DNA of 44,769 bases from a virus. Its lineage: Duplodnaviria > Heunggongvirae > Uroviricota > Caudoviricetes. Below are positions 1-40,104 of the stretch, one piece after another (positions within the stretch are counted from its first letter, which is position 1; every line of letters starts with the position of its first letter). The notes under the pieces were generated by a model. That model had not been told where the DNA came from, ran no database searches, and saw nothing but the letters and a program-made list of their open reading frames with translations. The translations under genes were made by a program, and so were the position numbers. The stretch lies in the IMG/VR virus record IMGVR_UViG_2909298281_000003; one strand, written 5' to 3'.

Positions 1-3349
<3,349 letters not shown>

Positions 3350-3350
<1 letters not shown>

Positions 3351-3655
3351 TATTTCACCTCTTGCTGTGTCATTGTTGAAAAATGGATACCAGCTCGTTG
3401 CTGCCAGACGATCCAACCGAGAGTCATATCCCATGCCATGTATTCGTTATCGCCGTTTTTTACTCTCCGACGATCTACTAAGTCACCGAAACGCTTTTCC
3501 ATGAATAATTCATAGGCTTCGCGTTCATCTGGCTCTACTTCCAGAGATACGAGTGCGATTTCATAAGCACGGCGCTCAATATCGTCTCGAACCTCTAGGC
3601 TGCTGATTCGTTCTTTGATTTCTTTAATCAGTTCTTTATTGGTAAATGTGGTCAT
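3350..3655 (-). CDS. yfdT: Early-left operon protein, YfdT-like (101 aa)
   Basis: ORF length and position match the CPS-53 yfdPQRST block; acidic small protein. Confidence 0.55.
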
Positions 3656-4017
3656 TATGCTCCAGCCTCCGGTGCTTTTGGCATTACTGCCCAGTGAGTG
3701 ATATTGACGTTTTCAAGGTCCCCGACCTGAAATGTCCACTGCCATTCTCCGGTTTCTTTTTGTCCCCAGGTGTACCAGAGAGAACGCCAGCCAATCAGCC
3801 AGCCTTCTCCATTAGCATCAAATAACAGAACACTTTCATTTGCTGGTGGCAGTTCAGCTGACACTGGTATTATTTTGTTTTCCAGTGCCGCACATTTAGC
3901 TTCAAGCGCGTCGAATTTACGTAACAGGTACTCAGCATTTGTTTCATTCACTTTCAGATCTCGCGGTACACATTTCCCGCGAAGAAACCCTTCCATTTCG
4001 AAAACATTCATGCGCAT
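3655..4017 (-). CDS. yfdS: Early-left operon protein, YfdS-like (120 aa)
   Basis: 120-aa ORF, start overlaps upstream gene stop (translational coupling). Confidence 0.55.
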   Translation of the reverse strand: MRMNVFEMEGFLRGKCVPRDLKVNETNAEYLLRKFDALEAKCAALENKIIPVSAELPPANESVLLFDANGEGWLIGWRSLWYTWGQKETGEWQWTFQVGDLENVNITHWAVMPKAPEAGA

Positions 4018-4544
4018 TTGCGTAACTCCGATAAATCGTTAAAACGTTCCATAAACATCCCGTAGGCATGACCCGGTGCCAGTGGAATCACGTTGAACAT
4101 CTCTGTTGCCGGGATGCCTTCCAGTACAGGCCAGAAAGAGCCATCATCAAGCCCGAGAGCGCGGCGTTCGGTTGCCAGCATGATGAGATCGGCATATTTC
4201 ACGGGTGTACTCATAACTGGGGGTAACCCGTATTTCTCACGGATTACGGCGTCTATTTTTTCTTCCATCCGTTTATAGTCAGGAAGAAGGCGTTTCAGTG
4301 GTGCGGGAATGTCCTGGCAATACGCTTCTGTTGCATCATGCATTAACGCTTCAAAAGCAAATTCCTGCGGCACCAGCTGGCTGCAAAGAACCGCATGTTG
4401 GGCGACGCTGTAGAAGTGCGAAAGATGACCGGCAAAGCGACAGATATTTGAAAGGGAAACCGCGATATCGTTAATATCGATGTCGTCTTTATTTATCCTG
4501 TCATAATAAAAATGCTTCCCGGAAAAAGTTTTAATAAATGACAT
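4008..4544 (-). CDS. yfdR: HD-domain phosphohydrolase, YfdR-like (178 aa from the internal ATG)
   Basis: Conserved H..HD motif (ALMHDATEAY); GGAGAA ribosome-binding site before ATG at 4544. Confidence 0.65.
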   Translation of the reverse strand: MSFIKTFSGKHFYYDRINKDDIDINDIAVSLSNICRFAGHLSHFYSVAQHAVLCSQLVPQEFAFEALMHDATEAYCQDIPAPLKRLLPDYKRMEEKIDAVIREKYGLPPVMSTPVKYADLIMLATERRALGLDDGSFWPVLEGIPATEMFNVIPLAPGHAYGMFMERFNDLSELRKCA

Positions 4545-4671
4545 TTTGTTCTCCACGTATATGCACTGCACCGCGCTGAATTCTGGTAAAAGGAAGCCCT
4601 CACCATCCGGTGATTATTGAGTTAATTACGTTTCCATAAATGCCCCCGCAGGGGCATTTGCAGTAATGAAA

Positions 4672-5496
4672 TCAGGCGGTGAAAGTACCAATAAAGGTTT
4701 CTACTTTGCTGTCCTTGAATTTCTCAACAAGCAGATCACGAAATTCGTTAGCCATTTCTTCCTGCACCGCTTCCAGCTGAATAATGCGCAGAACCAGTAC
4801 AGGACGATCGCCAGTGATAATGCTGAGGCGTAATTTAAACGGACGTTCTTTCAGACCTTCAAACGGAACGCATTTAAATTCAAATGCCACTGGCATAATG
4901 TCTTTGGTCTTCGCTTCGACAGACTCCATCAGGGAGCGTTTGCCGCTGAAGTCATTATCTTCAAAATCAGCGGTCTGGTTTGCTTCAATCGTGATTTTAC
5001 GGACTGCCGCAGCCGCTTTTGTTGCCTGAATGGTGTCACCATTAGCATCAAAGCCCACAAGGTAGTCGGCCCAGTCTTCGATCCATTCTGCCAGTGACTT
5101 CTGGGAGTTACGCTCGCCGTTAACAGACAACAGAGCAGAGAACGGTGCTGTCTTTTTCAGTTTGAGAGTGGCAGTGTTATCTGCGTGACCTGGCTCATCA
5201 ATAGTACCCAGGTTAAGCACACTGATGGCACGCATATTATCGGCATCGATAAAGCAGCGGGTGCCTTCATCTGCAAGATCTTTAGAATAACGGGTAAAAT
5301 CATCGATGCTGGCAGTGGAAAGTGCACCACGGAAACGGAAGCGATTTAAATTAAATTTTTCCAGATCATGAATGCGGAAATTCTCAGGCAATGCCACAGC
5401 ATCGGCACCAATCTTACTGATAATTTCATTAACACCCTGAGCAGAAATAAGGGCATGGATTTGATTAATTGCGGTTGCGTCTAAGTTCTGAGACAT
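4672..5496 (-). CDS. yfdQ: DUF2303-family protein, YfdQ-like (274 aa)
   Basis: 274-aa ORF in a codon-consistent frame; length matches YfdQ. Confidence 0.6.
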
Positions 5497-8995: not shown

Positions 8996-9922
8996 ATGAG
9001 CACTAAATTAACCGGCTATGTATGGGATGGTTGCGCTGCATCAGGCATGAAATTATCCAGCGTGGCAATTATGGCCCGCCTGGCTGATTTCAGTAATGAC
9101 GAAGGTGTGTGCTGGCCATCAATTGAAACCATTGCCCGCCAGATTGGCGCGGGGATGAGTACCGTCAGAACGGCTATCGCACGGCTGGAAGCAGAAGGCT
9201 GGTTAACGCGTAGGGCGCGTCGCCAGGGTAACCGCAATGCGTCGAATGTTTATCAGCTTAACGTTGCGAAGCTTCAGGCAGCGGCATTTTCTCAACTGTC
9301 AGATTCTGACCCGTCAAAATCTGACCCGTCAAAATTTGATGCGTCGAAATCTGGCAAAAAAGCGGGTTTTCACCCGTCAGAATCTGGTGGGGATCCGTCA
9401 GTAAAATCAAAACATGATCCGTCAGATAAAAAAACTTCTCGTCCGGACGCTTCGCAACCGGACACGCAGACGGCTGAACAGGATTTTTTAACTCGCCATC
9501 CTGATGCGGTTGTATTCAGCCCTAAAAAGCGCCAGTGGGGGACGCAGGATGATTTGACCTGCGCACAGTGGCTCTGGAAAAAAATCATCGCCCTGTACGA
9601 GCATGCCGCCGAATGTGACGGCGAGGTGGTTCGTCCCAAAGAACCGAACTGGACAGCCTGGGCAAACGAAATTCGCCTGATGTGTGTGCAGGATGGTCGT
9701 ACTCATAAACAAATCTGCGAGATGTACAGCCGCGTCAGTCGCGATCCGTTCTGGTGCCGTAACGTGCTCAGCCCGTCGAAGCTGCGGGAAAAATGGGATG
9801 AGCTTTCCCTGCGCTTATCGCCGTCCGTCAGCACGTACACCGAAAAACGCGAAGACCCGTACTTCAAAGCCAGTTACGACAACGTGGACTACAGCCAGAT
9901 CCCGGCAGGATTCAGGGGGTGA
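8996..9922 (+). CDS. Replication initiator, O-like (HTH N-domain, iteron-containing linker)
   Basis: 308-aa ORF; N-terminal winged-helix region; internal iteron array encoding the DPSKSDPSKFDASKS repeats. Confidence 0.75.
   Translation: MSTKLTGYVWDGCAASGMKLSSVAIMARLADFSNDEGVCWPSIETIARQIGAGMSTVRTAIARLEAEGWLTRRARRQGNRNASNVYQLNVAKLQAAAFSQLSDSDPSKSDPSKFDASKSGKKAGFHPSESGGDPSVKSKHDPSDKKTSRPDASQPDTQTAEQDFLTRHPDAVVFSPKKRQWGTQDDLTCAQWLWKKIIALYEHAAECDGEVVRPKEPNWTAWANEIRLMCVQDGRTHKQICEMYSRVSRDPFWCRNVLSPSKLREKWDELSLRLSPSVSTYTEKREDPYFKASYDNVDYSQIPAGFRG
9305..9430. repeat. Iteron array (putative replication origin) inside the O-like gene
   Basis: Six direct copies of core CCGTCA(A/G)(A/T)AAT: ctgacccgtcaaaat x2, gcgtcgaaatctg, cacccgtcagaatctg, gatccgtcagtaaaatc, gatccgtcagataaa. 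Confidence 0.65.
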
Positions 9923-18439: not shown

Positions 18440-18650
18440 TCCGGCGATCCGACAGGTTACGGGGCGGCGACCTCGCGGGTTTTCGCTATTTATGAAAATT
18501 TTCCGGTTTAAGGCATTTCCGTTCTTCTTCGTCGTAACTTAATGTTTTTATTTAAAATACCCCCTGAAAAGAAAGGAAACGACAGGTGCTGAAAACGAGC
18601 TTTTGGGCCTCTGTCGTTTCCTTTCTCTGTTTTTGGCCGTGGAATGAACA
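18440..18650 (+). promoter_or_regulatory. cos: cos site (cosN with 12-nt cohesive end GGGCGGCGACCT at 18462-18473, plus cosB) for terminase
   Basis: Matches the lambda left-end sequence gggcggcgacctcgcgggttttcgctatttatgaaaattttccggtttaagg as recalled. Confidence 0.85.
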
Positions 18651-19196
18651 ATGGAAGTCAACAAAAAGCAGCTGGCTGACATTTTCGGTGCGAGTATCCG
18701 TACCATTCAGAACTGGCAGGAACAGGGAATGCCCGTTCTGCGAGGCGGTGGCAAGGGTAATGAGGTGCTTTATGACTCTGCCGCCGTTATAAGATGGTAT
18801 GCCGAAAGGGATGCTGAAATTGAGAACGAAAAGCTGCGCCGGGAAGTTGAAGAACTGCGGCAGGCCAGCGAGACAGATCTCCAGCCAGGGACTATTGAGT
18901 ACGAACGCCATCGACTTACGCGTGCGCAGGCCGACGCACAGGAGCTGAAAAATGCCAGAGACTCCGCTGAAGTGGTGGAAACCGCATTCTGTACTTTCGT
19001 GCTGTCGCGGATCGCAGGTGAAATTGCCAGTATTCTCGACGGGATCCCCCTGTCGGTGCAGCGGCGTTTTCCGGAACTGGAAAACCGACATGTTGATTTC
19101 CTGAAACGGGATATCATCAAAGCCATGAACAAAGCAGCCGCGCTGGATGAACTGATACCGGGGTTGCTGAGTGAATATATCGAACAGTCAGGTTAA
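18651..19196 (+). CDS. nu1: Terminase small subunit Nu1
   Basis: 181-aa ORF MEVNKKQLADIFGASIRTIQNWQEQGMPV… as lambda Nu1. Confidence 0.95.
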   Translation: MEVNKKQLADIFGASIRTIQNWQEQGMPVLRGGGKGNEVLYDSAAVIRWYAERDAEIENEKLRREVEELRQASETDLQPGTIEYERHRLTRAQADAQELKNARDSAEVVETAFCTFVLSRIAGEIASILDGIPLSVQRRFPELENRHVDFLKRDIIKAMNKAAALDELIPGLLSEYIEQSG

Positions 19197-19723
19197 CAGG
19201 CTGCGGCATTTTGTCCGCGCCGGGCTTCGCTCACTGTTCAGGCCGGAGCCACAGACCGCCGTTGAATGGGCGGATGCTAATTACTATCTCCCGAAAGAAT
19301 CCGCATACCAGGAAGGGCGCTGGGAAACACTGCCCTTTCAGCGGGCCATCATGAATGCGATGGGCAGCGACTACATCCGTGAGGTGAATGTGGTGAAGTC
19401 TGCCCGTGTCGGTTATTCCAAAATGCTGCTGGGTGTTTATGCCTACTTTATAGAGCATAAGCAGCGCAACACACTTATCTGGTTGCCGACGGATGGTGAT
19501 GCCGAGAACTTTATGAAAACCCACGTTGAGCCGACCATCCGCGATATTCCGTCGCTGCTGGCGCTGGCTCCGTGGTATGGCAAAAAGCACCGGGATAACA
19601 CGCTCACTATGAAGCGTTTTTCCAATGGTCGTGGCTTCTGGTGCCTGGGCGGTAAAGCGGCAAAAAACTACCGTGAAAAGTCGGTGGATGTGGCGGGTTA
19701 TGATGAACTTGCTGCCTTTGATG
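19171..19723 (+). pseudogene. A: Terminase large subunit A, N-terminal fragment, interrupted by an IS66-family insertion
   Basis: Lambda gpA N-terminus up to …GYDELAAFD, then reading continues into IS sequence. Confidence 0.9.
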
Positions 19724-19724
19724 G

Positions 19725-19800
19725 TAACCGGCTCATTTAAACCGTCTGGTCTGTTTCCTCCGTAACCGGCTCATTTAAACCGTCTGGTCTGTTTCCTCCG
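19725..19800 (+). repeat. Tandem duplication of the 38-bp IS66 left-end sequence
   Basis: taaccggctcatttaaaccgtctggtctgtttcctccg occurs twice back to back (19725-19762, 19763-19800). Confidence 0.8.
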
Positions 19801-19814
19801 GCTCTACAAAAATA

Positions 19815-20492
19815 ATGTCCATCATTTTTAATGGACACTATCGTATGAAACACCGGACCTGGATCACTGAAGCTTTACGTCTTCACTTTGAAGAACATTT
19901 ACCCCGGGTTGTGGCCGGGCGTCGCCTGGGTGTACCAAAATCAACAGTTTGTAGTATGTTCGTGCGCTTTCGGAGAGCTGGCCTTTCGTGGCCTTTGCCC
20001 GCAGGCATGTCGGAGCAGGAACTTGATGCCTGCCTTTACGGACAATTTTCCACGGTACCAGTCGTACGTCCTGAAAGCACCGTTATATCCGAAGCCCCCG
20101 TGGTAAAAAAACGTCCCCGGCGGCCCAACTTCCCTTATGAGTTTAAAATCGCCTTAGTGGAGCAGTCACTGCAGCCCGGAGCCTGTGTGGCGCAGATCGC
20201 CCGGGAAAACGGAATCAACGATAACCTGCTCTTCAACTGGCGCCATCAATACCGGAAAGGTGGCCTGCTGCCTTCCGGAAAAAATATGCCGGCACTGCTT
20301 CCCGTGACGTTAACGCCGGAGCCGGATAATAAAATCCCGGCCCCCGCACAGGAACCAGAGCAGATAAATACACCGTCCGACAGTCTGTGTTGTGAGCTGG
20401 TTCTGCCGGCCGGAACTCTCAGGCTTAAAGGTAAACTGACGCCTGCGTTATTACAGACACTTATCCGCGAAATAAAAGGGAGCAGCCACTGA
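19815..20492 (+). CDS. tnpA: IS66-family accessory protein TnpA (orf1); start uncertain
   Basis: HTH region FKIALVEQSLQPGACVAQIARENGINDNLLFNWRHQY typical of IS66 orf1. Confidence 0.7.
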   Translation: MSIIFNGHYRMKHRTWITEALRLHFEEHLPRVVAGRRLGVPKSTVCSMFVRFRRAGLSWPLPAGMSEQELDACLYGQFSTVPVVRPESTVISEAPVVKKRPRRPNFPYEFKIALVEQSLQPGACVAQIARENGINDNLLFNWRHQYRKGGLLPSGKNMPALLPVTLTPEPDNKIPAPAQEPEQINTPSDSLCCELVLPAGTLRLKGKLTPALLQTLIREIKGSSH

Positions 20493-20839
20493 TGATATCT
20501 CTCCCTGCAGGTTCGCGTATCTGGCTGGTTGCAGGTATCACCGATATGCGAAATGGCTTTAACGGCCTGGCATCAAAAGTTCAGAACGTCCTGAAGGATG
20601 ACCCGTTCTCCGGACACCTGTTCATCTTCCGCGGACGCCGGGGTGACCAGATAAAAGTGTTGTGGGCTGACAGTGACGGACTGTGCCTCTTCACCAAACG
20701 CCTGGAGCGGGGCCGCTTCGTCTGGCCAGTCACCCGTGACGGCAAGGTGCACCTTACTCCGGCTCAGTTATCCATGCTTCTTGAAGGTATCAACTGGAAG
20801 CACCCGAAACGAACGGAACGCGCTGGAATCCGCATATAA
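20492..20839 (+). CDS. tnpB: IS66-family TnpB (orf2)
   Basis: 115-aa ORF MISLPAGSRIWLVAGITDMRNGFNGLA…, start overlaps the tnpA stop. Confidence 0.8.
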   Translation: MISLPAGSRIWLVAGITDMRNGFNGLASKVQNVLKDDPFSGHLFIFRGRRGDQIKVLWADSDGLCLFTKRLERGRFVWPVTRDGKVHLTPAQLSMLLEGINWKHPKRTERAGIRI

Positions 20840-20858
20840 CCCGTTGTAAAGTGAGGAT

Positions 20859-22429
20859 ATGGACACCTCACTTGCTCATGAGAACGCCCGCCTGCGGGCA
20901 CTGTTGCAGACGCAACAGGACACCATCCGCCAGATGGCTGAATACAACCGCCTGCTCTCACAGCGGGTGGCGGCTTATGCTTCCGAAATCAACCGGCTGA
21001 AGGCGCTGGTTGCGAAACTGCAACGTATGCAGTTCGGTAAAAGCTCAGAAAAACTTCGTGCAAAAACCGAACGACAGATACAGGAAGCACAGGAGCGAAT
21101 CAGCGCACTTCAGGAAGAAATGGCGGAAACGCTGGGTGAGCAATATGACCCGGTACTGCCATCCGCCCTGCGCCAGTCTTCAGCCCGTAAACCGTTACCG
21201 GCCTCACTTCCCGTGAAACCCGGGTTATCCGGCCGGAAGAGGAATGCTGTCCTGCCTGTGGTGGTGAACTCAGTTCTCTGGGATGTGATGTGTCAGAGCA
21301 ACTGGAGCTTATCAGCAGCGCCTTTAAGGTTATCGAAACACAACGTCCGAAACTGGCCTGTTGCCGGTGCGACCATATCGTGCAGGCACCAGTACCTTCA
21401 AAACCCATTGCACGCAGTTATGCCGGAGCGGGGCTTCTTGCCCATGTTGTCAGCGGGAAATATGCAGACCATCTGCCGTTATACCGCCAGTCAGAAATAT
21501 ACCGTCGTCAGGGAGTGGAGCTGAGCCGTGCCACACTGGGGCGCTGGACAGGTGCTGTTGCTGAACTGCTGGAGCCGCTGTATGACGTCCTGCGCCAGTA
21601 TGTGCTGATGCCCGGTAAAGTCCATGCTGATGATATCCCCGTCCCGGTCCAGGAGCCGGGCAGCGGTAAAACCCGGACAGCCCGGCTGTGGGTCTACGTC
21701 CGTGATGACCGTAACGCCGGTTCACAGATGCCCCCGGCGGTCTGGTTCGCGTACAGTCCGGACCGGAAAGGTATCCATCCACAAAATCACCTGGCCGGTT
21801 ACAGCGGTGTGCTTCAGGCCGATGCTTACGGTGGTTACCGGGCGTTATACGAATCCGGCAGAATAACGGAAGCCGCGTGTATGGCTCATGCCCGGAGAAA
21901 AATCCACGATGTGCATGCAAGAGCGCCCACCTACATCACCACGGAAGCCCTGCAGCGTATCGGTGAACTGTATGCCATCGAGGCAGAGGTCCGGGGCTGT
22001 TCAGCAGAACAGCGTCTGGCGGCAAGAAAAGCCAGAGCCGCGCCACTGATGCAGTCACTGTATGACTGGATACAGCAACAGATGAAAACACTGTCGCGTC
22101 ACTCAGATACGGCAAAAGCGTTCGCATACCTGCTGAAACAGTGGGATGCACTGAACGTGTACTGCAGTAATGGCTGGGTGGAAATCGACAACAACATCGC
22201 AGAGAACGCCTTACGGGGAGTGGCCGTAGGCCGGAAAAACTGGATGTTCGCGGGTTCCGACAGCGGTGGTGAACATGCGGCGGTGTTGTACTCGCTGATC
22301 GGCACATGCCGTCTGAACAATGTGGAGCCAGAAAAGTGGCTGCGTTACGTCATTGAACATATCCAGGACTGGCCGGCAAACCGGGTACGCGATCTGTTGC
22401 CCTGGAAAGTTGATCTGAGCTCTCAGTAA
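20859..22429 (+). pseudogene. tnpC: IS66-family transposase TnpC, frameshifted by loss of one C at 21210-21212
   Basis: Two overlapping ORFs (20859-21524, 21290-22429); the continuous reading …LPASLP|[20 protein letters not shown]… needs one extra C in cttcccgtg. Confidence 0.7.
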
Positions 22430-22460
22430 ATATCAATACGGTTCTGACGAGTCGCTTACC

Positions 22461-25621
<3,161 letters not shown>

Positions 25622-25641
<20 letters not shown>

Positions 25642-31750: not shown

Positions 31751-34304
31751 ACCGGTAGGCGATCTGGTCGTTGATTTGAGTCTGGATGCGGCCAGATTTG
31801 ACGAGCAGATGGCCAGAGTCAGGCGTCATTTTTCCGGTACGGAAAGTGATGCGAAAAAAACAGCGGCAGTCGTTGAACAGTCAATGAACCGGCAGGCGCT
31901 GGCTGCACAGAAAGCGGGGATTTCCGTCGGGCAGTATAAAGCCGCCATGCGTATGCTGCCTGCACAGTTCACCGACGTGGCCACGCAGCTTGCAGGCGGG
32001 CAAAGTCCGTGGCTGATCCTGCTGCAACAGGGTGGTCAGGTTAAGGACTCCTTCGGCGGGATGATCCCCATGTTCAGGGGGCTTGCCGGTGCGATCACCC
32101 TGCCGATGGTGGGGGCCACCTCGCTGGCGGTGGCGACCGGTGCGCTGGCGTATGCCTGGTATCAGGGCAACTCAACCTTGTCCGATTTCAACAAAACGCT
32201 GGTCCTTTCCGGCAATCAGTCGGGGCTGACGGCAGATCGTATGCTGGTCCTGTCCAGAGCCGGGCAGGCGGCAGGGCTGACGTTTAACCAGACCAGCGAG
32301 TCACTCAGCGCACTGGTTAAGGCGGGGGTAAGCGGTGAGGCTCAGATTGCGTCCATCAGCCAGAGTGTGGCGCGTTTCTCCTCTGCATCCGGCGTGGAGG
32401 TGGACAAGGTTGCTGAAGCCTTCGGGAAGCTGACCACTGACCCGACGTCGGGGCTGACAGCGATGGCGCGCCAGTTCCATAACGTGACGGCGGAGCAGAT
32501 TGCGTATGTTGCTCAGTTGCAGCGTTCCGGCGAAGAAGCCGGGGCATTGCAGGCGGCGAACGAGGCCGCGACGAAAGGGTTTGATGACCAGACCCGCCGC
32601 CTGAAAGAGAACATGGGCACGCTGGAGACCTGGGCAGAGAGGACAGCACGGGCATTCAAATCCATGTGGGATGCGGTGCTGGATATTGGTCGTCCTGATA
32701 CCGCGCAGGAGATGCTGATTAAGGCAGAGGCTGCGTTTAAGAAAGCAGACGACATCTGGAATCTGCGCAAGGATGATTATTTTGTTAACGATGAAGCGCG
32801 GGCGCGTTACTGGGATGATCGTGAAAAGGCCCGTCTTGCGCTTGAAGCCGCCCGAAAGAAGGCTGAGCAGCAGACTCAACAGGACAAAAATGCGCAGCAG
32901 CAGAGCGATACCGAAGCGTCACGGCTGAAATATACCGAAGAGGCGCAGAAGGCTTACGAACGCCTGCAGACGCCGCTGGAGAAATATACCGCCCGTCAGG
33001 AAGAACTGAATAAGGCACTGAAAGACGGGAAAATCCTGCAGGCAGATTACAACACGCTGATGGCGGCGGCGAAAAAGGATTATGAAGCGACGCTGAAAAA
33101 GCCGAAACAGTCCGGCGTGAAGGTGTCTGCGGGCGATCGTCAGGAAGACAGTGCTCATGCTGCCCTGCTGACGCTTCAGGCTGAACTCCGGACGCTGGAG
33201 AAGCATGCCGGAGCAAATGAGAAAATCAGCCAGCAGCGCCGGGATTTGTGGAAGGCGGAGAGTCAGTTCGCGGTACTGGAGGAGGCGGCGCAACGTCGCC
33301 AGCTGTCTGCACAGGAGAAATCCCTGCTGGCGCATAAAGATGAGACGCTGGAGTACAAACGCCAGCTGGCTGCACTTGGCGACAAGGTCACGTATCAGGA
33401 GCGCCTGAACTCGCTGGCGCAGCAGGCGGATAAATTCGCACAGCAGCAACGGGCAAAACGGGCCGCCATTGATGCGAAAAGCCGGGGGCTGACTGACCGG
33501 CAGGCAGAACGGGAAGCCACGGAACAGCGCCTGAAGGAACAGTATGGCGATAATCCTCTGGCGCTGAATAACGTCATGTCAGAGCAGAAAAAGACCTGGG
33601 CGGCTGAAGACCTGCTTCGCGGGAGCTGGATGGCAGGCCTCAAGTCCGGCTGGAGCGAGTGGAAAGAGAGCGCCACGGACAGTATGTCGCAGGTTAAAAG
33701 TGCTGCCACGCAGACCTTTGATGGTATTGCACAGAATATGGCGGCGATGCTGACCGGCAGTGAACAGAACTGGCGCAGCTTCACCCGTTCCGTGCTGTCC
33801 ATGATGACAGAAATTCTGCTTAAGCAGGCAATGGTGGGGATTGTCGGGAGTATCGGCAGCGCCATTGGCGGGGCTGTTGGTGGCGGCGCATCCGCGTCAG
33901 GCGGTACAGCCATTCAGGCCGCTGCGGCGAAATTCCATTTTGCAACCGGAGGATTCACAGGAACCGGCGGCAAATATGAGCCAGCGGGGATTGTTCACCG
34001 TGGTGAATTTGTCTTCACGAAGGAGGCAACCAGCCGGATTGGCGTGGGGAATCTCTACCGGCTGATGCGCGGCTATGCCACCGGTGGTTATGTCGGTACA
34101 CCGGGCAGTCTGGCTGACAGCCGGTCGCAGGCGTCCGGGACGTTTGAGCAGAATAACCATGTGGTGATTAACAACGACGGCACGAACGGGCAGATAGGTC
34201 CGGCTGCTCTGAAGGCGGTGTATGACATGGCCCGCAAGGGTGCCCGTGATGAAATTCAGACACAGATGCGTGATGGTGGCCTGTTCTCCGGAGGTGGACG
34301 ATGA
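31743..34304 (+). CDS. H: Tail tape measure protein H
   Basis: 853-aa ORF matching lambda gpH. Confidence 0.95.
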   Translation: MAEPVGDLVVDLSLDAARFDEQMARVRRHFSGTESDAKKTAAVVEQSMNRQALAAQKAGISVGQYKAAMRMLPAQFTDVATQLAGGQSPWLILLQQGGQVKDSFGGMIPMFRGLAGAITLPMVGATSLAVATGALAYAWYQGNSTLSDFNKTLVLSGNQSGLTADRMLVLSRAGQAAGLTFNQTSESLSALVKAGVSGEAQIASISQSVARFSSASGVEVDKVAEAFGKLTTDPTSGLTAMARQFHNVTAEQIAYVAQLQRSGEEAGALQAANEAATKGFDDQTRRLKENMGTLETWAERTARAFKSMWDAVLDIGRPDTAQEMLIKAEAAFKKADDIWNLRKDDYFVNDEARARYWDDREKARLALEAARKKAEQQTQQDKNAQQQSDTEASRLKYTEEAQKAYERLQTPLEKYTARQEELNKALKDGKILQADYNTLMAAAKKDYEATLKKPKQSGVKVSAGDRQEDSAHAALLTLQAELRTLEKHAGANEKISQQRRDLWKAESQFAVLEEAAQRRQLSAQEKSLLAHKDETLEYKRQLAALGDKVTYQERLNSLAQQADKFAQQQRAKRAAIDAKSRGLTDRQAEREATEQRLKEQYGDNPLALNNVMSEQKKTWAAEDLLRGSWMAGLKSGWSEWKESATDSMSQVKSAATQTFDGIAQNMAAMLTGSEQNWRSFTRSVLSMMTEILLKQAMVGIVGSIGSAIGGAVGGGASASGGTAIQAAAAKFHFATGGFTGTGGKYEPAGIVHRGEFVFTKEATSRIGVGNLYRLMRGYATGGYVGTPGSLADSRSQASGTFEQNNHVVINNDGTNGQIGPAALKAVYDMARKGARDEIQTQMRDGGLFSGGGR

Positions 34305-34630: not shown

Positions 34631-35328
34631 TGCAGGATATCCGGCAGGAAACACTGAATGAATGCACCCGTGCGGAGCAGTCGGCCAGCGTGGTGCTCTG
34701 GGAAATCGACCTGACAGAGGTCGGTGGAGAACGTTATTTTTTCTGTAATGAGCAGAACGAAAAAGGTGAGCCGGTCACCTGGCAGGGGCGACAGTATCAG
34801 CCGTATCCCATTCAGGGGAGCGGTTTTGAACTGAATGGCAAAGGCACCAGTACGCGCCCCACGCTGACGGTTTCTAACCTGTACGGTATGGTCACCGGGA
34901 TGGCGGAAGATCTGCAGAGTCTGGTCGGCGGAACGGTGGTCCGGCGTAAGGTTTACGCCCGTTTTCTGGATGCGGTGAACTTCGTCAACGGAAACAGTGA
35001 CGCCGATCCGGAGCAGGAGGTGATCAGCCGCTGGCGCATCGAGCAGTGCAGCGAACTGAGCGCGGTGAGTGCCTCCTTTGTACTGTCCACGCCGACGGAA
35101 ACGGATGGCGCTGTTTTTCCGGGACGTATCATGCTGGCCAACACCTGCACCTGGACCTATCGCGGCGATGAGTGCGGTTATCACGGTCCGGCGGTCGCGG
35201 ATGAATATGACCAGCCAACGTCCGATATCACGAAGGATAAATGCAGCAAATGCCTGAGCGGTTGTAAGTTCCGCAATAACGTCGGCAACTTTGGCGGCTT
35301 CCTTTCCATTAACAAACTTTCGCAGTAA
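34630..35328 (+). CDS. L: Minor tail protein L
   Basis: 232-aa ORF. Confidence 0.9.
   Translation: MQDIRQETLNECTRAEQSASVVLWEIDLTEVGGERYFFCNEQNEKGEPVTWQGRQYQPYPIQGSGFELNGKGTSTRPTLTVSNLYGMVTGMAEDLQSLVGGTVVRRKVYARFLDAVNFVNGNSDADPEQEVISRWRIEQCSELSAVSASFVLSTPTETDGAVFPGRIMLANTCTWTYRGDECGYHGPAVADEYDQPTSDITKDKCSKCLSGCKFRNNVGNFGGFLSINKLSQ

Positions 35329-36703: not shown

Positions 36704-40104
<3,401 letters not shown>

Follow-up and report, generated by a model that had tools for sequence, protein, structure and literature searches.

The large terminase gene gpA of a lambda-like prophage from diarrhoeal E. coli has very probably been split by a recent transposition of the IS66-family element ISCro1, private to ETEC strain D181, so that the prophage would have lost its own terminase and, with it, packaging in cis. 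The window analysed, a stretch of 44,769 nucleotides, is sequence of this strain (CP024252.1), which belongs to ST4493/O182:H21.

Empty and occupied site in gpA

The insert occupies positions 19724-22459 (2736 bp, plus strand) and is abutted at both ends by CTTTGATG. The left copy of this target-site duplication (19716-19723, plus strand) adjoins the left tip of the insert, and the right copy (22460-22467, plus strand) adjoins the right tip. The chance of an 8-mer match at two fixed positions is 1/65,536; since CTTTGATG recurs elsewhere in the window (at 33716 on the plus strand and three times on the minus strand), it is its position at the tips of the element that counts. Deletion of 19724-22467 in silico resulted in a single, uninterrupted ORF of 641 aa with a GTG start at 19171, as the initial annotation had predicted. 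The excised 1200-bp empty-site sequence was 100% identical to the unbroken terminase gene of E. coli Res13-Lact-PEB17-18, and was mostly covered in 3,381 of the 5,426 complete E. coli genomes. In addition, a collinear relative that lacks the IS elements was found in strain JNU (99.5-99.6% identical). The proposal of an insertion in gpA by an element of the IS66 family, carrying tnpA, tnpB and tnpC and flanked by an 8-bp duplication, is borne out by positions, ORFs and Pfam domains alike.

The 5′ part of gpA (19171-19723, plus strand) comprises codons 1-184, with Walker A at residues 76-84 and the Walker B motif VAGYDE, including E179, at residues 174-179; ISCro1 cuts the ATPase domain five residues later. 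The upstream frame runs through ...AAFD and continues with GNRLI and a stop from the IS end, resulting in a 189-aa chimera that ends at 19740. The 3′ part (22461-23840, plus strand; codons 183-641) contains the rest of the ATPase domain, the nuclease domain and the C-terminus. Insert and duplication add up to 2744 bp, and 2744 mod 3 is 2, so that the 3′ part is out of frame in situ and comes into frame only once the element is excised. The stop after ...AAFD had therefore been read correctly at the outset, but not the in-frame resumption in situ. The 3′ part has no start of its own: its frame opens only at 22419, within the IS, and the candidate starts GTG 22563 and ATG 22614 lack an obvious ribosome-binding site. 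A scan of 19600-22700 revealed no promoter-like site, and hence no evidence that the IS drives the 3′ fragment, while terminator-like sites in the same region were no more numerous than in shuffled sequences.

In the repaired protein, PF05876 (GpA_ATPase, residues 47-285) and PF20454 (GpA_nuclease, residues 322-600) lie on one polypeptide, and GpA_ATPase, which the insertion divides in the window, is found as a single Pfam match. The repaired protein was 99.4-99.8% identical to the terminases of the isolated lambda-like phages Turner, mEp332, HK630 and HK629. By its domains and these matches, gpA once repaired is a lambda-type large terminase, with predicted terminase activity. The surrounding packaging region is kept: the cosN core GGGCGGCGACCT (18462-18473, plus strand) lies upstream of the intact small-subunit gene nu1/nohD (18651-19196, plus strand; 181 aa, PF07471, 100% identical to that of JNU), and the gene order cos-nu1-A-W-B is maintained, with W at 23837-24043 and the portal gene at 24040-25641. 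For annotation purposes, the two terminase fragments of the D181 prophage should be treated as one pseudogene.

The ISCro1 element and its duplicated left end

The inserted element is ISCro1 as judged by nucleotide identity: 1,487 genomes contain ISCro1 copies that it matched at 99.8-99.9% identity over 100% of the query, the comparison being with copies annotated as 'IS66-like element ISCro1 family transposase'. ISCro1 was first named in Citrobacter rodentium ICC168 (PMC3072379), is described as a 2699-bp element with an 8-bp duplication (PMC12115866), in line with the 8-bp target duplications that the literature reports for IS66-family elements, and is widespread in E. coli. Duplications of 8 bp were also present at six other ISCro1 copies examined, and no common motif was apparent by eye among CTTTGATG, GAACCTGA, TTTTAACG, GCATATCT, GGATAAAC, CGAAAGAA, GTCCGTCC, GCAACACC and AGTTTATT. 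The gpA copy shares with the canonical 2699-bp copies the tnpA-tnpB-tnpC order, the ends and the 8-bp duplication; it differs from them in having the left terminal 38 bp twice in tandem and in lacking one C in tnpC, and 5-6 differences from the ISCro1 copies were counted besides the 38-bp duplication. The inverted repeats, GTAACCGGCTCA... on the left and GTAAGCGACTCG... (reverse complement; 22436-22459, minus strand) on the right, are identical at 17 of 24 positions and both begin with 5′-GTAA, a start typical of the IS66 family.

The three consecutive genes that characterise the IS66 family are all present on the plus strand. The tnpA gene (19815-20492; 225 aa, HTH_Tnp_1) encodes a protein identical to WP_001339397.1 and carries one synonymous, D181-specific G>T change at 20444; tnpB (20492-20839; 115 aa) matches PF05717 TnpB_IS66. 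The DDE transposase gene tnpC (20859-22429) lacks 1 bp at about 21209, where a run of C4 has become C3; the loss splits the gene into a leucine-zipper part (20859-21524) and a part with the zinc finger and the DDE domain (21290-22429) in another frame. Adding back one C restored a 523-aa TnpC identical to that of strain E272, with all four Pfam domains (LZ_Tnp_IS66, zf-IS66, DDE_Tnp_IS66 and DDE_Tnp_IS66_C). Programmed frameshifting in tnpC was ruled out, as 5,028 of about 5,031 E. coli copies are uninterrupted; the C3 version occurs in only three records among these copies. The frameshift, as sequenced, counts against transposition as the origin of the gpA insertion; either the gpA copy was mobilised in trans, or it mutated later, or the lost base is an assembly error. 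Single-base contractions of G/C runs occur in the D181 assembly at about 1 per 12 kb, also in unrelated DNA where the match to another strain is otherwise almost complete. Given this homopolymer-error signature, the frameshifts in tnpC, Rz/Rz1 and gpJ may be assembly artefacts, and no biological meaning should be given to them without support from the reads.

The left end of the gpA copy consists of a perfect 38-bp tandem duplication. The outer unit, with the left inverted repeat (GTAACCGG...), lies at 19724-19761 (plus strand) next to the target duplication, and is identical to the inner unit at 19762-19799 (plus strand), which is the counterpart of the one left end in canonical ISCro1. Besides the gpA copy, the duplication was found in only one further copy, on a D181 plasmid (P1, CP024249.1; 2737 bp), where the same two left ends accompany an intact 523-aa TnpC. 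No ISCro1 copy in the 5,426 E. coli genomes showed it, and the remaining PLSDB plasmids, the GTDB representatives and the metagenome contigs gave no further case. For this search a 51-nt junction query was used, which denies unduplicated copies a 28-nt seed, and GTDB representatives and metagenomes were scanned by exact pattern for the two junctions, gpA::IS and duplication, without a match.

Imperfect consensus quality, as revealed by the G/C-run contractions, together with the absence of the D181 assembly from the RefSeq-derived collection, raises the question of whether misassembly of a repeat put the IS into gpA or created the duplicated end. This is highly improbable. A misplaced repeat would not yield a perfect 8-bp duplication and exact restoration of the ORF on removal, and homopolymer errors do not produce 38-bp tandem copies. 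Furthermore, the two loci with the 38-bp duplication lie on separate replicons and have different flanks, and three other ISCro1 copies of the same assembly do not have it.

The presence of the duplication at two loci, both in D181, suggests that the double-ended variant has itself transposed. At both sites it is the outer left end that the target duplication adjoins (CTTTGATG in gpA, and GCAACACC, as reconstructed, in CP024249.1). It is quite possible, although we propose it tentatively, that the gpA copy represents a natural form of ISCro1 that is itself mobile and carries two complete left ends, one directly after the other. The duplication begins exactly at element nucleotide 1 (or 2), which suggests an origin in transposition, for example through strand-displacement synthesis in gap repair, and not in random slippage. 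The second chromosomal copy of ISCro1, at about 2,612,022-2,614,719 of CP024252.1, has the tnpC frameshift as well. Provided that this shared frameshift is real, this single-ended sister may derive from the double-ended copy through use of the inner end, and its TnpC may have been supplied in trans from the plasmid. Were this the case, D181 would serve as a natural experiment showing how ends are chosen and how trans-action occurs in IS66, a family whose mechanism of transposition is little understood. Such a mobile variant with a duplicated end is the sole mildly unusual point of the gpA insertion.

D181 carries at least five ISCro1 copies, and all five observed contain the private 20444T. 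This shared base, and the plasmid copy with the same 38-bp duplicated left end, point to the strain's own ISCro1 population as the putative donor. According to the known behaviour of IS66-family elements, ISCro1 would have landed between gpA codons 184 and 185, the DDE transposase TnpC cutting the target with an 8-bp stagger and joining the element ends, and gap repair then generating the CTTTGATG duplication. The D181 population appears to be active and putatively seeded from plasmids; it reshapes the chromosome, through prophage inactivation and IS-in-IS nesting, and also the IncF plasmid bearing the ST, LT and EAST1 toxin genes, where it is associated with an inversion.

Age of the insertion and effect on packaging

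The 189-aa chimeric protein is encoded on a single contig, CP024252.1, and a search of 5,426 complete E. coli genomes, the GTDB representatives and the metagenomes did not turn up the gpA::ISCro1 junction. The absence of the junction from every other genome searched indicates that the insertion is recent and private to D181. A comparable insertion was found in strain 16843 (NZ_CP113503.1), where ISCro1, with the 8-bp duplication GTCCGTCC, also breaks the large terminase gene of a lambdoid prophage. That insertion is an event independent of the one in D181: it affects another prophage, at a site near the 3′ part of the gene and in the opposite orientation, and the copy is a canonical one of 2699 bp with intact tnpC.

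The expected outcome in D181 is a 189-aa stub and a 3′ part without a translation start, and thus a prophage with no terminase of its own and no cos cutting or packaging in cis, as far as can be told from the disruption of the domains. On the other hand, since the prophage still has cos, nu1 and almost all of its head, tail and lysis genes, it could conceivably be rescued in trans or through recombination with a related phage. There is a precedent in Sp4 of O157 Sakai, a prophage with an IS-disrupted terminase that was packaged, probably by the terminase of a sibling prophage (PMC2669165). In both cases an IS knocks out a lambda-type packaging gene of a lambdoid prophage that is otherwise largely complete and keeps cos; in Sp4 the IS-disrupted gene is that of the small subunit, nu1 (Asadulghani et al. 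2009, PMC2669165), whereas in D181 the large subunit is affected, the element belongs to the IS66 family and the integrase is broken too. With cosN and nu1 intact and Sp4 as precedent, the initial statement that packaging should be abolished holds in cis but not in trans, and the prophage is best annotated as defective in packaging and excising itself autonomously. The gpA::ISCro1 insertion is an ordinary step of prophage decay, of a kind already known and well understood, and not a new system; its main value lies in annotation and interpretation, and it opens no new question in phage or transposon biology.

Integrase lesion and state of the prophage

The integrase lesion proposed in the initial annotation proved to be real. 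An IS100 element of the IS21 family (762-2715, minus strand; 1954 bp) lies inside intD with a 5-bp ATAAA duplication, flanked by the intD fragments at 4-762 and 2716-3123. Its genes istA (1607-2629; 340 aa, rve) and istB (828-1610; 260 aa, IstB_IS21) are both intact, and the element is 99.3% identical to the IS100 annotated in strain K99B. As a consequence of this insertion, the prophage would also be unable to excise by itself.

The broken integrase bears on whether gpA could be restored by precise excision of ISCro1 under some condition, in the manner of 'active lysogeny'. Removal of the element and one duplication copy does restore the gene perfectly, and intact TnpC is at hand from plasmid copies. 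However, there is no dedicated recombinase and there are no att-like sites, and with intD separately broken, restoration of gpA alone would give no phage. Precise excision is not known for IS66-family elements, and such a switch is extremely improbable.

A different question is whether the prophage had lost the ability to excise or replicate before ISCro1 arrived, in which case the insertion in gpA would have had no phenotypic effect. The IS-free relatives in JNU and K99B contain only a 66-bp xis pseudogene, plus other small pseudogenes, so that the prophage was possibly non-inducible before the insertion, a point that weighs against loss of packaging as an effect of ISCro1. In addition, intD was independently broken by IS100, and gpJ and Rz, together with the embedded Rz1 (a 1-bp deletion), are frameshifted as sequenced. 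These lesions could have come in any order, however, and the gpJ and Rz frameshifts may be sequencing errors. Moreover, the repaired terminase is nearly identical to those of active phages, and in O157 Sakai the integrase alone suffices to excise some xis-less lambdoid prophages (PMC2669165). We therefore regard such a silent insertion as possible but rather unlikely, and favour a recent transposition that deprived the prophage of its terminase.

The lesions in intD and gpA could also be seen as adaptive, the host having kept lysis functions and bor, lom and porin while loss of terminase and integrase was selected to lock in the prophage. Two independent IS elements lie in the two genes on which escape depends most, insertions of ISCro1 or other IS elements in or near terminase genes occur in other strains too, and holin, endolysin, bor, lom and porin are full length. 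The view that the prophage keeps lysis and outer-membrane morons therefore stands for these five, but not for Rz/Rz1 as sequenced. The label 'domesticated' is not supported by the data. The junction is found in a single genome, with no sign of retention over time, and both ISCro1 and IS100 keep perfect target duplications. More than 40 other prophage genes, for which a domesticated remnant would have no use, are full length in comparison with JNU, the complete set of head and tail genes among them. With at least five ISCro1 copies in D181, chance hits in a 40-kb prophage are expected, and selection is not demonstrable from two insertions. Adaptive domestication is therefore improbable, and the lesions look like recent neutral decay rather than retention shaped by selection.

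The D181 prophage is a full-length lambdoid prophage of the DLP12 type, located at argU. In a comparison based on gene names in relatives, it shares with DLP12 of E. coli K-12 the integration site at argU, next to tRNA-Arg, and the genes intD, quuD, an nmpC-like porin gene, essD, rrrD, rzpD, bor, ybcV, ybcW and nohD. Unlike the cryptic DLP12, it has kept its full length and every head and tail gene up to and including stf/tfa, which places it at a much earlier stage of decay.

Interruption of the terminase gene

The lambda-type terminase large subunit gene gpA is interrupted by an insert of 2736 bp (19724-22459) bounded by copies of CTTTGATG at 19716-19723 and 22460-22467, which lie directly against both tips. 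The initial annotation had proposed that an IS66-family element with an 8-bp duplication splits gpA, and the tips, the repaired reading frame and the genes of the element confirm that proposal. In silico removal of 19724-22467 resulted in a single 641-aa ORF with a GTG start at 19171, and the repaired 1200 bp were 100% identical to an uninterrupted counterpart, the terminase gene of E. coli O20:H12 Res13-Lact-PEB17-18. Of 5,426 complete E. coli genomes, 3,381 had matches over most of this stretch. Repaired gpA contains the GpA_ATPase (residues 47-285) and GpA_nuclease (322-600) domains, and it shows 99.4-99.8% identity to the large terminases of isolated lambda-like phages such as Turner, mEp332, HK630 and HK629. 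In the window, the upstream frame ends in DELAAFD followed by IS-derived GNRLI and a stop. The insert plus one duplication copy amounts to 2744 bp (2744 mod 3 = 2), so that the 3′ part of gpA is in frame only once the insert is excised; the frame had been described as resuming in-frame, which holds after excision but not in situ.

The insertion point lies between D184 and E185 within the ATPase domain, downstream of residues 76-84 and five residues past VAGYDE (174-179), which we take, following published work on lambda gpA, to be the Walker A motif and the Walker B/catalytic glutamate, respectively. Lacking a start codon of its own, the 3′ fragment is read in a frame that opens only at 22419, within the IS. 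No ribosome-binding site was evident at either candidate start of this fragment (22563 and 22614), and no promoter-like site was found for it. These features argue strongly for a loss of terminase activity through the interruption of gpA. The earlier expectation that packaging should be abolished is thus retained in cis, but not beyond it. In prophage Sp4 of O157 Sakai, the small subunit gene nu1 is disrupted by an IS and the DNA is still packaged; its authors proposed that the Sp14 terminase packages Sp4, the two cos sequences being nearly identical (PMC2669165).

The insert and the ISCro1 population of strain D181

The insert is specifically ISCro1, of the IS66 family. Over its length it is 99.8-99.9% identical to E. 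coli copies annotated as ISCro1, and a near-full-length copy is present in 1,487 genomes. It encodes TnpA (HTH_Tnp_1), TnpB (TnpB_IS66) and TnpC (LZ_Tnp_IS66, zf-IS66, DDE_Tnp_IS66 and DDE_Tnp_IS66_C), and its ends are imperfect inverted repeats, both starting with GTAA and matching at 17 of 24 positions. Duplications of 8 bp also flank other ISCro1 copies examined; a 2025 paper reports an 8-bp duplication generated by "a 2699 bp ISCro1" (PMC12115866), and 8-bp repeats were also found at IS66-family elements captured in Paracoccus (PMC3281130).

Alignment with three reference ISCro1 copies revealed that the gpA copy differs from canonical ISCro1 in having its left terminal 38 bp twice, in perfect tandem (19724-19761 and 19762-19799), and in lacking one C of the tnpC C4 run at ~21209, a deletion that parts the leucine-zipper portion from the zinc-finger and DDE portions. 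It also carries one substitution, a synonymous G>T at 20444. Restoring the missing C yields a TnpC of 523 aa, the same protein as in strain E272.

A search of the whole collection for exact matches to the chimeric 189-aa product gave one contig, CP024252.1 (assembly GCA_002741275.1), of which the window represents about 1,953,665-1,998,433. CP024252 is listed in a comparative study as ETEC strain D181 (O182:H21, ST4493, phylogroup B1; PMC8281228). The gpA::ISCro1 junction had no match in 5,426 complete E. coli genomes, among the GTDB species representatives or in the metagenome contigs, which indicates that the insertion is private to D181 and probably recent. Insertion sequences are well known to disrupt genes of lambdoid prophages. 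E. coli 16843 (NZ_CP113503.1; 4511-7209 of locus L007) carries an ISCro1 of 2699 bp with duplication GTCCGTCC in gpA of a different lambdoid prophage, an independent event, and in three or more further genomes ISCro1 left ends adjoin small-terminase or DNA-packaging genes. ISCro1 expansion and ISCro1-mediated rearrangements are also on record (PMC3072379; PMC12115866; PMC8764528).

Strain D181 harbors a second chromosomal copy (2473-5170 of locus L009; CP024252.1 ~2,612,022-2,614,719) of 2698 bp, with one left-end unit, a C3 run as in the gpA copy and duplication GGATAAAC. From the second 38-bp unit of the gpA copy on, the two copies are 100% identical; the second copy sits inside tnpC of a different IS66-family element whose uninterrupted form was found in strain EC4. 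The 167-kb IncF plasmid CP024249.1, which carries sta1, LT and astA, contains three copies with C4 runs: P1 (11846-14582, minus strand, 2737 bp), with two left-end units, a 523-aa TnpC and no duplication; P2 (44378-47076, 2699 bp), with one unit and duplication CGAAAGAA; and P3 (47740-50438, 2699 bp), with one unit and no duplication. All five D181 copies carry 20444T and therefore represent one lineage, expanded within this strain.

The 8-bp flanks GCAACACC and AGTTTATT of the inverted copies P1 and P3 are swapped reciprocally, a signature of recombination between inverted copies that indicates a ~33-kb plasmid inversion by homologous recombination between them; P2 lies only 663 bp away from one of this pair. 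Undoing the inversion in a reconstruction resulted in a double-ended element with a proper duplication, GCAACACC. A proper duplication beside the outer end at two sites indicates that the variant with the duplicated left end inserted twice and is mobile. In the collections searched, the 38-bp duplication junction was found outside the gpA copy only in P1, and this mobile variant is the sole mildly unusual feature of the case.

Lesions of the prophage

The window extends from the 3′ end of intD, beside tRNA-Arg, to a tail-fibre assembly gene, and the prophage is a full-length lambdoid prophage of the DLP12 type. The prophage of strain JNU is collinear, with 99.5-99.6% identity and without either IS, and each of its coding sequences was compared with the window. 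Over 40 genes proved to be full length, among them the nu1, portal, capsid, tail, lom, bor, porin, holin and endolysin genes, and cosN is present at 18462. The integrase lesion previously noted was confirmed: intD is split into fragments 4-762 and 2716-3123 by IS100 (762-2715; IS21 family), an element of 1954 bp that retains intact istA and istB genes and is flanked by the 5-bp duplication ATAAA. In strain K99B a prophage of this type also carries IS100, but within yfdT, which makes that an independent insertion. Of the excisionase-like gene xis, even the IS-free relatives retain no more than a 66-bp remnant (2826-2891 in both L004 and L005; equivalent to ~3285-3350 of the window), and the prophage family may thus have been excision-impaired ahead of the IS insertions.

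Single-C deletions also affect rzpD (16270), where the embedded Rz1 is truncated too, and the tail-tip gene gpJ (39720), so that the rzpD, gpJ and tnpC frameshifts are all C-run contractions. As their origin we slightly favour under-calling of homopolymers in the D181 assembly over genuine pseudogenes. Such contractions occur about once per 12 kb in D181 DNA otherwise almost identical to relatives; an unrelated 6.4 kb of D181 chromosome, with two substitutions relative to EC4, again showed a single-base contraction (G5 to G4) altering a gene, here a zinc-ribbon gene (L009, near position 1280). Moreover, the RefSeq-derived collection lacks the assembly, and PLSDB lists its plasmid with a GenBank accession and not a RefSeq one. 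Inheritance would instead fit the tnpC deletion, common to both chromosomal ISCro1 copies, present in none of the three plasmid copies and very rare elsewhere (3 of 2,208 records). The origin of the frameshifts bears on the autonomy of the gpA copy and the integrity of lysis cassette and tail tip; the gpA and intD interruptions are unaffected by it. The earlier suggestion of a domesticated prophage is not supported by these observations, which fit neutral decay of recent date in a strain whose IS population is active.

Further differences from JNU were observed. The O-like replication gene (HTH_36) contains a 15-bp tandem repeat array of 3.3 copies (9305-9353), with one unit more in JNU; these repeats are possibly origin iterons varying in number. 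In the C-terminal part of gpJ, 6 bp (a GACACT repeat unit) are inserted in frame at 39981, a 1-bp A insertion lies at 35327 between gpL and gpK, and gpK is just 93.5% identical to that of JNU, its neighbours being about 100% identical.
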